From positions 529 through 64,528 of the forward strand of contig JAVHPL010000005.1 in assembly GCA_036170555.1 (NCBI GenBank): DNA of 64,000 nt. Reading direction: 5' to 3'. The position numbers were made by a program, and so were the translations under genes. How positions within the stretch are numbered: position 1 is the first letter of the stretch; every line of letters starts with the position of its first letter. The DNA comes from Sediminibacterium sp. (GTDB lineage: Bacteria > Bacteroidota > Bacteroidia > Chitinophagales > Chitinophagaceae). Below are positions 7,057 through 57,811 of this stretch, one piece after another. The notes below the pieces were generated by a model, which was given only the letters and a program-made list of their open reading frames with translations, was not told where the DNA came from and searched no databases.

Positions 7057-8028
7057 TTAAATTCTACTAATTTGATTAGGTATTTGTTTGAATAGGATAT
7101 TATTTTTTAATAAATATTCCTTTGGCAATACACAATTGTTAGCATATATAATATACTGTTTTGCATTAGACTTTATTATAGAAAGTGAATCAATATCTAG
7201 GGTAGTAATTTGTTCTGCTTCAAAATAAAAATAGTAGGCTATATCTTTATGAATGCCTAGTAAATACGGCTCATGTAAATGAAAAGTATTTATTTCATAA
7301 TTTGTGTTTGTTTCACTAAACCAAACGTATTCTCTAATTTGTTTAACAGGAAGGTTTTCGTTTAGTTTTTCTTGGGGTTCCCCTATAAACATGGCTTCTC
7401 CTAATGTATAATAGTGAAAATGTAAATCCTGTTTTTGTGATTCTGTACATCCGCACATTAATTTTTTTGTAATAGTGTTTTTAGTAAAACTTAAGGGCTC
7501 CATTATAATGAATTGTCTATTGCCATGGTCTAATTTATTTAATCTAATCAGGTCTTTAATATGAGCAATATTACCCTTATAATTTTCTAGTATCCTACAG
7601 GTACTATTAGCAAAAATGGTATGTAGTACATTATTTAATTCTATTTGATTGGTGGAAAAATGATACTCATTTAATTGTTGAACTACTTGATCCAAAATAT
7701 TTTTATCTGTATAAATGAGGAGTACGCCAGTTTCACTTAGTAATGCGTTTAGTAAAAAAATCATCGAGGGTAGTTCTTCTATACCATCTTTTGTGCATAT
7801 TGCTAAACTTAGATGATAGTAGATACAATTAATTGTACCATAATAATTGGGTAATAATCTTTTTACTATTTCTATTGTATTTCCACTAATAATTTTATTG
7901 TTGGTTTCTGTAATATTACTTGTTATATCACCACCATCTACTGCATAATCAAAATACATTCCTTTATATGGAATGGCATTCTGAATAAAATGGTACTTAC
8001 TTTTCTTTTTCCAATAAATAATATGCAC
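7057..8028 (-). CDS. Degenerate type III R-M Mod-like protein, predicted catalytically inactive and lacking the TRD
   Basis: By-eye similarity to Mod: NKIISGNTIEIVKRLLPNYYGTINCIY (cf. NKIIHGDNLEALKSLLPEYEGKIKCIY), LNKLDHGNRQFIIME (cf. LNKQDGGNRKFILIE), C-terminal QYIIYANNCVLPKEYLLKNNILFKQIPNQISRI; no DPPY or FxGxG motif; GTG start. Confidence 0.7.
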   Translation of the reverse strand: MHIIYWKKKSKYHFIQNAIPYKGMYFDYAVDGGDITSNITETNNKIISGNTIEIVKRLLPNYYGTINCIYYHLSLAICTKDGIEELPSMIFLLNALLSETGVLLIYTDKNILDQVVQQLNEYHFSTNQIELNNVLHTIFANSTCRILENYKGNIAHIKDLIRLNKLDHGNRQFIIMEPLSFTKNTITKKLMCGCTESQKQDLHFHYYTLGEAMFIGEPQEKLNENLPVKQIREYVWFSETNTNYEINTFHLHEPYLLGIHKDIAYYFYFEAEQITTLDIDSLSIIKSNAKQYIIYANNCVLPKEYLLKNNILFKQIPNQISRI

Positions 8029-8034
8029 TAACAG

Positions 8035-8111
8035 GTATCTTTTAAAGTGTATAAATGTCTTTAAAATACAAAAATGTACTATAAGTATAAAATAATGTAC
8101 TTAAAAGATAC
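8035..8111. promoter_or_regulatory. 11-bp perfect inverted repeat (GTATCTTTTAA / TTAAAAGATAC) in the divergent intergenic region
   Basis: Arms at 8035-8045 and 8101-8111; operator role is inference. Confidence 0.4.
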
Positions 8112-8164
8112 TAAAACATATTATTAGGATAGTTATAAATGGCTCAATTGTTCAATTTTGAAGA

Positions 8165-8524
8165 GTGAAAAAAGCCATAGGAACAAGAATCAGAAAACTC
8201 AGGGTAAGCAAAGATTATACGCAAGATAATATGGCGGCGGAATTAGAAATTACTGCAGGCGCGTATGCTAAAATAGAGCGTGGGGAAACTGATCCTTCTG
8301 CAACTAGATTAATTCAAATTGCTGAAATTTTAGGAGTGGATATTGCTTTCTTTTTTCAAGAAGCAGCAAATCCTCAGCAGTTATTAGATAAAAATACTCA
8401 TTACGGGAATGCCTCTTATCAAGATATTGAAAAGCTTCATATATTAATTGAATCGCTTAGTAGAGACATGGAAAAAATTAAGCTTGAATTAGCATTAATC
8501 AAAAAATATAAAAATAAAAAATAG
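8165..8524 (+). CDS. XRE/Cro-C1 family HTH transcriptional regulator
   Basis: IGTRIRKLRVSKDYTQDNMAAELEITAGAYAKIERGETDPS is a typical HTH_3; C-terminal coiled-coil-like tail. Confidence 0.9.
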   Translation: MKKAIGTRIRKLRVSKDYTQDNMAAELEITAGAYAKIERGETDPSATRLIQIAEILGVDIAFFFQEAANPQQLLDKNTHYGNASYQDIEKLHILIESLSRDMEKIKLELALIKKYKNKK

Positions 8525-54673: not shown

Positions 54674-57600
54674 TCAATCTTCATCTGTTTCATTTTGTTC
54701 ATGTAGGGCAATTGCCAATTGATTTGTTTTTACAAACTCACACCAATGACAATCTGGTTTGCCGCAGCCTGTATAAAATTCTTTATTTTGAATCTTTTCC
54801 CAAACGGTAGTAATTTGTTGAGTAACCGTAGCAATATCAGCAGGTGAAATCACCAGTTTTTCTTTTCTATATGCTTTCTTTTTATCGGGTTCAATAAAGT
54901 CGAATTCACTACTTACCACTTGCCAATTTTTTTGATTATAATTATCTACCAGTATTTTATAAAATACGGCCTGCCTCCAATAATCTCCACCATGAGGATT
55001 TTTATCGTTGGGAGGCAGTAATTTATTTTTAGCTTTTTCAATATCTCCCGTTTTATAATCTACCACATTTACTTCTTTTCCATTGAATTCTATTTTATCT
55101 AACTTACCTTTAATAGGAACTCCATGAACTACTACATTCTTAATGGTACGTTCAATTACCACAATTTTATTCCAAGTATCTAGATAGGCATTATAATAAT
55201 TAGTAAGCACTTCTTGTCCATATTCCATTCTTCTAGCAAACTGTTCCTTGGTAAAATTTTCTCTATGCCTGCGCATATAATAGTCAAAGTCTCCAATGAA
55301 AGTTTCAATAGGCGGAAACTGTTCTTTTTCCTGCATCTGCTGAAATAAGCGTTGTAAGGCATGGTGTACAGCCGAACCAAACTCGGTAGATTCCGATTTT
55401 CCAGAAGGCACACGCACCAGATTATTAAAATAAAATTGGAGTGGACATTTTAAATAATTATTTAAAGCAGTAACATTCATTACAAACTTTTCTAATAGTT
55501 TGTTAATGAATTCAGTTTCAATTTGATCAATTTCAGGCATTAGGGTATCTTCAAAAGCCAACGCACTAAAGGCACTAATATGATCTGCCGAAACAGTAAC
55601 CCGCTGAATAGGTAAATGTTGTATTTCTTGAATTTCGGCAATAAACATAGAGGGCTCTAATGGCTTTCCATCCGATTTGAATTGGCTATATGAAATAGTT
55701 AACTGTTTTTCGGCTCTGGTAACTGCCACATAAAAAAGTCTTCTTAATTCTTCTTCCTCACTTAATTTTGGTTGCGAGCTAAACATGGTATCGGGTAGCG
55801 TATAACCTCCACCAGGTTTTCTTTTCTTTTCCCAATAGCTTGCATTACTACCTGCAATAAATACATATTCAAACTCTAATCCTTTTGATCCATGAGCCGT
55901 TAATAAATTAACTCCTTTATCACTTCCACTAACCTGTACTAAGGGTAAACTCAATCCTTCTTTTTCCATTAATTCAATTACAGAAACCAATTCTTGTAAT
56001 TTCAATGTTGGATTTCTTCTGGTTTCATCTTTTACAAAATCAAATAAACCAGTAAGAACTTGCAAGTGCCAATGTTTTTCTGGGTCTTGCATAATAAATT
56101 GTAAAACCCCAGCACGGCGAATGATATTTTCAAATAAGCCTTGTAATGTACTATTTGGAGCATCTCCAATTAAATTTTCAATAGCATCGCTTACATTTTT
56201 TATTCCATTAATGGGTACGCTGAATAAATCTTTTGCTGGTTTATTGGCTAATTCGTAAATATATTTTCGTAAACTGGTTTTTTCATTTCCAAAACGTTTA
56301 TCAGCTACACTAGAACTTATTTTTGCAATTTCTATTGGAGCAATATTAAACCAGTTGAAATGCATAATTTCAAATAACATTTCATCTCCTCCATAGGGTA
56401 TATCATGTTCAGCCGCAATATATTTTAATAGTAGAATTATTTTTTTAGCAAGAGGAATATGTAAAATATTTAAATTACGTTTACTGTAAACAGGAATTTG
56501 TTGCTGTTTAAAATAAGTGCTCAAAACTTCGCCATACTTATTTTCTTTATAAATGATGGCAATTTTTCCTGGTGCAATTCCTTTATTTATTAATTCACTT
56601 ACTTGTAAAGTAAGATCAATCATTTCTTGTTGTTGCGTTTCATATTCACGCAGTATAGGTTTTTCGTTAACACCATTGAATTTTGTATTAGCGGCCAATA
56701 ATGTTTTGCTTAGTCCATCAATTTTTTTTACTAATCTTTCTTCATTCTTATCAATCAAGGTTTTTGCAGTATCTAATATGGGCTGAGTAGATCGGTAATT
56801 ATTGGTTAATACAATTGTATGAAGGCTTTGGAGGTACTTACTGGCAAATTTTTCCATATTTTCAATATTGGCACCCTGAAAACGGTAAATACTTTGGTCA
56901 TCATCGCCAACAACAAAAATATTGGGATCTTCCCAGTAATTTATAAGCAAATCTACTAGGTTATTTTGTGTTCCACTGGTATCTTGGTATTCATCTACTA
57001 AAATATATTGATACTGTTCCTGGTATTTAGCAAGCAGTAATTTATTTTCTTTAAACGCAATCAATACCCAATTAATCATATCATCAAAATCATAACGGCC
57101 TCTTTTTTGCATCAATTGCTGAAAATGGTCAAACTCATTCACAGCAGCTTGTAGTTTTTCCATTTTCTCAAGCTCCTCGTTTATCTTGTTTTGTTTAAGA
57201 TCTCCTGCCTTAAACTGCTTATATGCTCGTTTATATATAAATTCTTCTCTGGTAGTAATCTCAAGCAAATATTGAGCTATACATTCTTGAATATAGGCTG
57301 GTGTCCAGCCTTCGCGCTTCATATTACTGAAGAGCTGTTTTAAATTATTTATTTCAAAATACACATCACCTCTATATCTTTTTAAAGGATGATTTTTAGG
57401 AAATTGATCAATCAATTGTTTAAACAATTCAATACTTTCTAATTCGGAAATGGGATCTAAAGCCGTTTTCTCAAATAACGATAAATTATCTTGAATAATA
57501 TCATTGCAAAATGCGTGAAACGTATATACGTTTACTTTGTATGCATCTGGACCTATAAAATGAAGTAATCGTTTGCGCATGGCAATCACTCCTGCGTCTG

Positions 57601-57811
57601 TATAAGTAAGACAAAGAATATTTTCTGCCTTTGTATCGGGTTCTAATAAAATTTTACCAATTCTTGCACTAAGTATTTGGGTTTTACCAGTACCTGGCCC
57701 GGCAATTACCATTACAGGTCCTTCAATGGTATCTACCGCTTTTTTTTGTTCAGCATTTAGCGATTGGTAAATTCGGTTATAATGATCTAATTGTTGATCT
57801 TTATTGCTCAT
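54674..57811 (-). CDS. UvrD/REP-family SF1 helicase fused to a C-terminal PD-(D/E)XK nuclease
   Basis: AGPGTGKT, VDEYQD, GDDDQSIYRFQGA, NYRST, TAHGSKGLEF, YVAVTRA; GKLDKI...VDYKTG. Confidence 0.92.
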   Translation of the reverse strand: MSNKDQQLDHYNRIYQSLNAEQKKAVDTIEGPVMVIAGPGTGKTQILSARIGKILLEPDTKAENILCLTYTDAGVIAMRKRLLHFIGPDAYKVNVYTFHAFCNDIIQDNLSLFEKTALDPISELESIELFKQLIDQFPKNHPLKRYRGDVYFEINNLKQLFSNMKREGWTPAYIQECIAQYLLEITTREEFIYKRAYKQFKAGDLKQNKINEELEKMEKLQAAVNEFDHFQQLMQKRGRYDFDDMINWVLIAFKENKLLLAKYQEQYQYILVDEYQDTSGTQNNLVDLLINYWEDPNIFVVGDDDQSIYRFQGANIENMEKFASKYLQSLHTIVLTNNYRSTQPILDTAKTLIDKNEERLVKKIDGLSKTLLAANTKFNGVNEKPILREYETQQQEMIDLTLQVSELINKGIAPGKIAIIYKENKYGEVLSTYFKQQQIPVYSKRNLNILHIPLAKKIILLLKYIAAEHDIPYGGDEMLFEIMHFNWFNIAPIEIAKISSSVADKRFGNEKTSLRKYIYELANKPAKDLFSVPINGIKNVSDAIENLIGDAPNSTLQGLFENIIRRAGVLQFIMQDPEKHWHLQVLTGLFDFVKDETRRNPTLKLQELVSVIELMEKEGLSLPLVQVSGSDKGVNLLTAHGSKGLEFEYVFIAGSNASYWEKKRKPGGGYTLPDTMFSSQPKLSEEEELRRLFYVAVTRAEKQLTISYSQFKSDGKPLEPSMFIAEIQEIQHLPIQRVTVSADHISAFSALAFEDTLMPEIDQIETEFINKLLEKFVMNVTALNNYLKCPLQFYFNNLVRVPSGKSESTEFGSAVHHALQRLFQQMQEKEQFPPIETFIGDFDYYMRRHRENFTKEQFARRMEYGQEVLTNYYNAYLDTWNKIVVIERTIKNVVVHGVPIKGKLDKIEFNGKEVNVVDYKTGDIEKAKNKLLPPNDKNPHGGDYWRQAVFYKILVDNYNQKNWQVVSSEFDFIEPDKKKAYRKEKLVISPADIATVTQQITTVWEKIQNKEFYTGCGKPDCHWCEFVKTNQLAIALHEQNETDED

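Follow-up and report, generated by a model that had tools for sequence, protein, structure and literature searches.

A catalytically dead type III Mod derivative without a target-recognition domain is kept by selection at its ancestral restriction-modification locus

It was found that a gene at positions 7057-8028 (minus strand) of a 64,000-nucleotide stretch of DNA from Sediminibacterium sp. (assembly GCA_036170555.1, contig JAVHPL010000005.1, positions 529 to 64,528; hereafter the window) encodes a derivative of Mod, the methyltransferase (MTase) subunit of type III restriction-modification (R-M) systems. As shown below, this protein, called sMod for short Mod, is an old, selected, and non-catalytic Mod without a target-recognition domain (TRD), which has been kept at the ancestral locus together with a regulator gene after the loss of the restriction subunit Res. 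sMod is an enzymatically dead Mod leftover that probably now works as a binding protein and not as an enzyme. Since both the TRD and the active site are absent, sMod should neither recognise nor methylate DNA and would thus act through protein-protein contacts. In the following, omega stands for dN/dS, and L-numbers denote the homologous loci that were fetched.

The short Mod and its lost motifs

As the initial annotation of the window had stated, the open reading frame (ORF) of sMod is unbroken. On the opposite strand, no ORF of at least 60 residues was found. Four independent metagenome assemblies contain the locus in one piece and differ by single nucleotide polymorphisms only (one of these results in C192S in the variable linker). 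The parts of the gene are as follows.

7057-8028, minus strand: sMod coding sequence, 323 residues plus stop codon, GTG start; catalytically dead, TRD-less type III Mod derivative
7900-8028, minus strand: N-terminal domain (NTD), residues 1-43, the positional equivalent of the EcoP15I Mod NTD
7663-7899, minus strand: remnant of the N-terminal half of the MTase core, residues 44-122, with beta4 and motifs V-VI
7804-7815, minus strand: HLSL, residues 72-75, where active Mods have motif IV (DPPY); about 30 residues that come next in active Mods are deleted
7432-7662, minus strand: remnant of the C-terminal half of the MTase core, residues 123-199, with the motif X helix, beta1, beta2, and a variable linker
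7567-7587, minus strand: ENYKGNI, residues 148-154, at the place of the S-adenosylmethionine (SAM)-binding motif I (DSFAGSG)
7060-7431, minus strand: C-terminal domain (CTD), residues 200-323, the most constrained part

The PADLOC model MTase_III PDLC03644 matches residues 114-322 of sMod (E=1.2e-38), and the N-terminus is matched, more weakly, by a second PADLOC model. Single-sequence searches of Pfam, NCBIfam, and PHROGs with sMod gave no match, the PDB gave a chance match only, and PF01555 found nothing in sMod at E<=10. When 5.8 billion proteins were searched, six other proteins of 322-323 residues were found to be 53-88% identical to sMod over the full length. The same search returned about 65 PF01555 methyltransferases of about 530 residues (E=1e-30 to 1e-63), which align to sMod via the N-terminal ~70 and the C-terminal ~180 residues. 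The profile of the family matches the solved type III Mods 6k0w (8e-83), EcoP15I Mod 4zcf (1e-69), and 7dsu (2e-52). The AlphaFold2 model of sMod is compact (pLDDT 84, pTM 0.83), and the same three Mods are its only significant fold matches in the PDB (6k0w, 1.6e-7; 4zcf, 2.7e-4; 7dsu, 1.7e-3). Thus, the homology to type III Mods, which the initial annotation had recognised, is borne out by PADLOC, profile, and fold, and the comparison with EcoP15I Mod is significant both by profile and by structure.

The IYIDPPY of active Mods has become IYY-HLSL in sMod (residues 70-75); the alignment sets IYIDPPYNTGNE against IYY---HLSLA. The motif IV signature (D/N/S)PP(Y/F) is gone from all eight short forms known (eight of eight), of which the most distant, L011, reads AAPPD. 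The FxGxG of motif I is gone as well, and DSFAGSG is replaced variously among the short forms by ENYKGNI, TKFTGTT, and YSRSVIT (DLYSRSV). The alignment agrees almost residue for residue with the initial annotation, which had set DPPY against HLSL and DSFAGSG against ENYKGNI. About 190 aligned residues, comprising beta6/7 and the entire TRD, are absent from sMod, with the deletion junction at residues 120/121 (7668/7669), and a further ~30 residues are gone after motif IV. The earlier reading that the segment holding the TRD is almost entirely missing was therefore right. On the other side of the balance, W6, K9, P20, and Y28 are conserved with full-length Mods, and the C-terminal half of the core keeps the invariant LNKxDxGNRxF and, further on, E177 in beta2. 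In summary, sMod is a type III Mod homologue by descent that has no motif IV, no motif I, no TRD, and no adjacent Res.

Selection on sMod and its age

Is sMod a pseudogene? It is not, as eight Sediminibacterium-like lineages carry a short Mod at one locus, and all copies are open. The dS of sMod is about 1.0-1.2 against L002-L009 and 0.17 against L001. These values equal those of the flanking genes; thus, the short form has been co-inherited vertically with them. The dN/dS is 0.24-0.34, compared with 0.01-0.12 in the neighbouring genes. In three phylogenetically independent close pairs, the whole-gene omega is 0.34, 0.28, and 0.26 (Fisher p=5e-5, 6e-9, and 1e-8). The CTD has an omega of 0.13-0.19 in most pairs and 0.37 in the window-L001 pair, and the values for the core and NTD range from 0.13 to 1.9 with wide confidence intervals. 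I also performed a neutral simulation of this AT-rich gene (27% GC). At 0.085 substitutions per site, the copies had a mean of 4.5 stop codons and 0.7% of them were intact, and at 0.17 substitutions per site or more, none of 4000 copies was intact. The suggestion in the initial annotation that selection keeps an intact scaffold is thus supported by eight open lineages, by the omega of 0.26-0.34, and by the simulation. The homologues make up a conserved clade of motif-less and TRD-less forms with a whole-gene omega below 1.

The CTDs of the short forms are 74% identical on average and 68% identical to that of the Mod of an intact system (L005; see below). The core of the short forms is only 25-36% identical to that of the L005-type Mod, whereas the L005-type core is 73-77% identical to other active Mods. 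In the tree of NTD plus core, all short forms make up one clade (100% support) with a long stem branch, sister to L005 and L010, two intact systems of the same locus. In the CTD tree, a clade with 96.5% support unites L005 and L010 with the seven close short forms and leaves L011 outside. This conflict could be a rate artefact or could result from past exchange or recombination between intact and short alleles. Since recent short-short pairs are mutual nearest relatives in the CTD and have an omega of 0.13-0.19 there, the constraint acts within the short-form lineages.

One further in-frame deletion was found in the family. At L087:262-3186, in a Bacteroidales metagenome-assembled genome (MAG; JAWOEH010000118), an independent event left a Mod of 302 residues without TRD, motif X, or motif I. 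Its DPPY is kept and the remainder is near-identical to active Mods. Downstream lie an AAA ATPase gene paired with a gene for a 219-residue protein, and then a Res fragment of 70 residues only. From its sequence, this single occurrence looks like an R-M system in recent decay. It resembles sMod in the in-frame loss of both the TRD and motif I from a Mod of this family. It differs from sMod in being fresh, in keeping DPPY, and in standing beside a Res fragment, whereas sMod is old, diverged, and selected.

The locus in other lineages

All short forms share the order of a DUF3089 gene, a divergent gene for an XRE-type helix-turn-helix (HTH) regulator, the short Mod, and a convergent recQ. In the window, the stop codons of sMod and recQ are 44 nucleotides apart. 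The source names of the relatives are Sediminibacterium sp. and Sphingobacteriia MAGs, and groundwater metagenomes contain the window sequence. In the more distant genome L011, the same synteny encloses a short Mod of 314 residues (37-39% identity). Both deletions are shared, and the motifs (AAPPD and YSRSV) have degenerated independently. The L011 contig (CALPNW020000012.1) is labelled Sphingobacterium thalpophilum, while its proteins and gene order (DUF3089, HTH, short Mod, recQ, SIS/CBS, ManC, KAS III) agree with those of the Sediminibacterium-like window; either the labelling or the binning seems to be at fault.

An intact system occupies exactly this locus in L005 and L010, with genes for the HTH regulator, a Mod of 543 residues, and a Res of 878 residues. 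PADLOC assigns the Mod to PDLC03644 (1e-170) and the Res to REase_III (3e-77). It was revealed that one MAG assembly, GCA_030681695.1, contains both L005 (contig JAUXRZ010000083, intact HTH-Mod-Res) and L002 (JAUXRZ010000028, HTH-short Mod-PDC-S01). Their flanks are 94-99% identical in nucleotide sequence, and the island between the flanks is only 79-83% identical. Thus, closely related strains that occur together have either the intact system or the short form, and the two behave as alleles of one locus. Probably, two such strains were binned together, and the presence or absence of the R-M system is a polymorphism within one population. L005 also has two additional genes between DUF3089 and HTH (L005:186-1172), encoding proteins of 76 and 248 residues with hydrophobic N-terminal segments; PADLOC gave no match for the pair, and no precomputed Pfam match is on record.

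In some lineages, PDC-S01, a candidate defence ATPase (PADLOC E=4.5e-183; Pfam AAA_14/DUF4143), is encoded between the short Mod and recQ. The gene overlaps the 3′ end of the short Mod gene by 4 nucleotides, and the insertions, all convergent with the short Mod, are as follows.

L002:10966-12306: PDC-S01 gene
L003:1524-2864: PDC-S01 gene
L006:1495-2616: PDC-S01 gene
L007:3593-4069: PDC-S01 gene

One and the same short Mod protein (P0003) has two different versions of PDC-S01 as its neighbour, which suggests that the site is an insertion hotspot.

What is the wider family like? At 74 of its 80 genome loci, a Res that is 40-90% identical to the L005 Res is encoded 0-2.5 kb downstream of Mod; thus, the family consists of ordinary Mod-Res type III systems. 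A conserved third subunit encoded between mod and res was considered and rejected, as the genes embedded there are variable hitchhikers. Examples of the sites from mod to res are L014:10594-11806, L018:10723-11780, and L064:10570-12361, and the hitchhikers are as follows.

Fic-domain protein, 354 residues, with HPFxDGNGRxGR: 13 loci
RhuM-like protein, 329 residues: 10 loci
Pair of an AAA ATPase of 367 residues and a protein of 218 residues: 8 loci

Four viral contigs of IMG/VR were also found, each with a full Mod-Res pair of the family, indicating that related systems move on mobile elements.

An exhaustive profile search of 1.84 billion representatives found the full short architecture in two 50%-identity clusters only, namely that of the window and that of the L011 protein. 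Other profile matches of about 300 residues were rejected as short forms; they are N-terminally truncated fragments of active Mods in which FAGSG is still present. A scan of metagenome contigs gave full-length Mods only and no additional short forms. A scan of genome contigs with the single sMod protein found no relative, but the alignment-based scan did. The distribution of the short form is thus very narrow, being limited to one genus-level clade and one locus.

The regulator gene and the control region

The upstream part of the locus contains the following features.

8165-8524, plus strand: XRE-family HTH regulator, 119 residues, GTG start; controller-like gene of the ancestral R-M system
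8029-8164: divergent control region between sMod and the HTH gene, 136 nucleotides, 88% identical in eight short-form and two intact R-M loci
8040-8047 and 8059-8066: invariant inverted repeat TTTTAAAG-N11-CTTTAAAA, 12-40 nucleotides upstream of the sMod start
within 8029-8164: central palindrome AAGTAyA-N6-TATACTT

The HTH orthologues of L001-L011 have a GTG start at every locus. The DNA-binding half (residues 1-60) is almost invariant and is more conserved than the housekeeping neighbours, and the C-terminal tail occurs in two lineage-specific variants. In PADLOC, the regulator matches HTH_VI (5e-12), capH (2e-11), and Control_protein (1e-6), and it weakly matches C.BclI and C.AhdI (E about 0.08). 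CapH is a regulator of CBASS; despite the capH match, no CapP-like protease was found near the HTH gene. The control region has kept this identity although the adjacent genes are saturated, or nearly so, at synonymous sites (dS about 1 or more). A scan for sigma-70 promoters gave nothing better than shuffled sequence, with a scan model that does not cover Bacteroidota promoters. Thus, the controller circuit of the ancestral R-M system, consisting of the HTH regulator and operator-like repeats, appears to be preserved around sMod.

The search for Res

The initial annotation had found no res gene in the window. This was confirmed, as tblastn of the cognate family Res across the 64-kb window gave noise only, the other large ORFs of the window are housekeeping genes with no res among them, and only 44 nucleotides separate the stop codons of sMod and recQ. 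No res was found at any short-form locus examined. The only helicase-nuclease of the window, an AddA-like UvrD helicase with a C-terminal PD-(D/E)XK nuclease domain, is encoded at 54674-57811, 47 kb from sMod, and is presumably a housekeeping component of AddAB.

Coupling of the Mod ends to Res

In EcoP15I, the Mod dimer is formed by the NTD and the MTase core (PMC4490356). The TRD of ModA reads the DNA, the catalytic pocket comes from ModB, and Res is contacted by the CTD and the MTase domain of ModA (PMC4490356). Which parts of Mod are coupled to Res in the present family? I correlated the pairwise divergence of each Mod region with that of Res over 105 intact Mod-Res pairs (loci L005 and L010-L173). 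The correlation coefficients are given for all 105 pairs, as partial correlations with the core controlled, for a dereplicated set (n=61), and within one Res class (n=31).

CTD versus Res: r=0.966; partial r 0.96; dereplicated 0.95; one Res class 0.77
NTD versus Res: r=0.83; partial r 0.80; dereplicated 0.78; one Res class 0.43
MTase core versus Res: r=0.40; dereplicated 0.39; one Res class 0.39
TRD versus Res: r=0.16; partial r -0.06; dereplicated 0.02; one Res class 0.00

This pattern suggests that the central part of mod, which encodes the core and the TRD, may be exchanged between systems as a cassette. The CTD and the NTD track Res, and the core and the TRD do not; thus, the short form retains the Res-coupled modules. 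In effect, sMod is both ends of Mod joined via a minimal core.

Possible functions of sMod

The initial annotation had named three candidate functions, namely a dominant-negative or regulatory partner of a type III system, a decoy for anti-restriction proteins of phages, and an adaptor for a distant Res-like nuclease. It is quite possible, and I tentatively propose, that sMod is an exapted, non-catalytic pseudo-subunit which binds cognate Res or Mod supplied in trans. The ancestral locus held HTH-Mod-Res, and in the derivative res, both motifs (IV and I), the TRD, and beta6/7 are gone, whereas the NTD, a minimal Rossmann core, and the CTD remain. The CTD, and the dimer surface of the NTD and core, may then bind the cognate Res or a full-length Mod in trans. 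The partner may be encoded elsewhere in the genome or may arrive with mobile elements that carry the same R-M family. The intact relatives on the IMG/VR viral contigs, and the one beside a short-form strain in a single MAG assembly, support the idea of a partner in trans. In a heterodimer of sMod and a full-length Mod, either the TRD that reads DNA or the catalytic pocket would be missing, depending on the role that the short subunit takes, and a dimer of short forms on Res would be blind to DNA sites. Since such complexes would be site-blind and dead in methylation, sMod might inhibit or modulate the cognate system. Its expression is presumably set by the HTH regulator through the conserved operator-like repeats.

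Several points weigh against this proposal. The AlphaFold2 model of sMod was built from an alignment that consists mainly of active Mods. Between short forms and active Mods, the NTD is about 30% identical, a strong divergence, and its omega is poorly constrained. A Res or full-length Mod partner is not known from any genome with the short form; none was found in the window, and the loci returned for the L011 MAG include no second Mod of the family. None of the RNA-seq runs searched contains the sMod gene. Moreover, the family CTD has no detectable similarity in sequence or fold to the CTD of EcoP15I Mod (residues 539-644). The alignment of the family profile to EcoP15I Mod ends at motif II, and a model of the CTD alone (pLDDT 80) found no structural relative in a fold search of the PDB (best E=0.38). 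Thus, the equivalence of the two CTDs is positional only, and a Res-binding role rests on position and covariation. Some of the covariation of CTD and Res is due to physical linkage, as the CTD is encoded at the end of mod that faces res. Since the NTD is encoded at the far end of mod from res, linkage alone does not explain the correlation of NTD and Res.

A more novel version of the pseudo-subunit proposal, which I regard as speculative and rather unlikely, is that sMod is a host-encoded "Res sponge", that is, an R-M-exclusion or anti-restriction factor made from the methyltransferase subunit of the R-M system itself. It would bind the Res, or poison the Mod dimer, of cognate systems that come from phages, mobile elements, or competing sister strains. 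If this is true, a selfish R-M family is neutralised at its usual insertion locus, and the intact and short forms are competing alleles.

Could sMod act without Res? It may be a co-factor or modulator of the adjacent XRE regulator, by binding it or by sensing a signal, and the pair may control genes of the host or the island. The HTH gene and the short Mod gene are always adjacent and divergently transcribed from the conserved control region, the DNA-binding half of the regulator is under the strong conservation described above, and the regulator resembles those of defence systems in its PADLOC matches. However, the intact L005 and L010 loci have the same HTH gene and control region, so that no new function is needed to account for them. 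The C-terminal variants of the regulator follow the lineages and show no special coupling to the short Mod. Nor does a regulatory module explain why, within sMod, constraint is strongest on the Res-coupled CTD. Such a module is an unlikely explanation.

I consider it improbable that sMod is a decoy or guard, which would mimic an R-M subunit and either soak up anti-restriction proteins of phages or trigger a response. The locus behaves as a defence hotspot, with the PDC-S01 ATPase inserted beside the short Mod in some lineages, and the core evolves fast. On the other hand, the omega of the core is 0.13-0.8, and no effector is linked at most loci, the window included. A library of viral structures contained no analogue, and neither a structural counterpart in phages nor a known inhibitor that targets Mod was found. 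The best-conserved part is the Res-coupled CTD and not a surface of the kind expected under attack. The covariation of CTD and NTD with Res thus favours a Res- or Mod-binding role over a decoy.

It is still less probable that sMod has no function of its own, either as a decaying remnant or because its conservation derives from gene conversion with an intact Mod or from a role of the DNA in cis. Independent in-frame deletions of Mod do arise, as in L087; the intact L005 and L010 CTDs lie between the seven close short forms and L011, so that past exchange is possible; and the whole-gene omega of sMod is above that of the flanks. Against this, the gene is intact in all eight lineages at divergences up to saturated dS, and in the neutral simulation none of 4000 copies was intact at 0.17 substitutions per site. 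Recent short-short pairs are nearest relatives with a low CTD omega and a core omega below 1, no long ORF lies on the opposite strand, and the decay case L087 looks quite different (DPPY kept, near-identity to active Mods, and a Res fragment). This explanation is largely refuted.

That sMod is still an enzyme, as a minimal methyltransferase or a SAM-binding protein with non-canonical motifs, is hardly credible, for although a partial Rossmann core with the acidic residue E177 of motif II is retained and predicted to fold, motif IV is deleted, the sequence in place of motif I varies from one short form to another, the beta6/7 hairpin is gone along with the TRD, and PF01555 does not match. Whatever likelihood is left falls to some different function of sMod.

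Comparison with known systems

In the literature searched on dead or TRD-less Mods, dominant-negative Mods, and R-M pseudoenzymes, no description of a protein like sMod was found. The closest relatives are type III Mods, including EcoP15I Mod (4ZCF), Helicobacter pylori Mod (6K0W), and the L005/L010 Mod. They share with sMod the N-terminal domain and the remnants of the beta-class Rossmann fold in the same order. The Bacteroidota Mods of the PDLC03644 family also share the family-specific CTD, and L005 and L010 share the locus, the HTH gene, and the control region. In contrast to sMod with its 323 residues, type III Mods have about 530-545 residues, and sMod is without DPPY, FxGxG, the TRD, beta6/7, and an adjacent Res. 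Unlike that of active type III Mods, the core of sMod has evolved rapidly after inactivation.

Orphan or phase-variable type III mods of the phasevarion type occur in Haemophilus, Neisseria, and Helicobacter, with res absent or inactive. As in the case of sMod, a type III Mod has been retained and selected after the loss of restriction. However, these Mods are active methyltransferases with a TRD and act by DNA methylation, whereas sMod, judging from its motifs, can neither methylate nor read DNA.

C proteins, of about 75-100 residues, are typical of type II systems. The sMod locus resembles R-M systems regulated by them in the small XRE-type HTH gene adjoining and in the conserved inverted repeats of the promoter region. 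The regulator of the window differs in having an extra, coiled-coil-like C-terminal tail and in matching CapH-like regulators better, and its binding to the operator is putative.

METTL14 is a catalytically dead MTase-fold partner. DNMT3L is an inactive accessory factor of DNMT3A/B (PMC3130282). Like sMod, the two have an MTase fold without catalytic and cofactor motifs that is conserved as a binding or scaffold subunit; the likeness is one of logic and not of family. They belong to unrelated lineages and have known active partners in the same genome, and sMod has also lost the TRD and part of the core.

R-M remnants are usually dismissed as pseudogenes, whereas here a dead Mod is kept by selection across many lineages together with a regulator. 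It offers a minimal construct, made by nature, with which to map the interfaces of Mod with Res and with a second Mod in a family whose CTD has no solved structure. Should sMod titrate Res or Mod, type III restriction would have a chromosomal inhibitor that derives from an R-M system, and this would bear on how bacteria tolerate, exclude, or tune selfish R-M systems. In any case, sMod is a candidate for a prokaryotic defence subunit turned pseudoenzyme, with a logic comparable to that of DNMT3L and METTL14.

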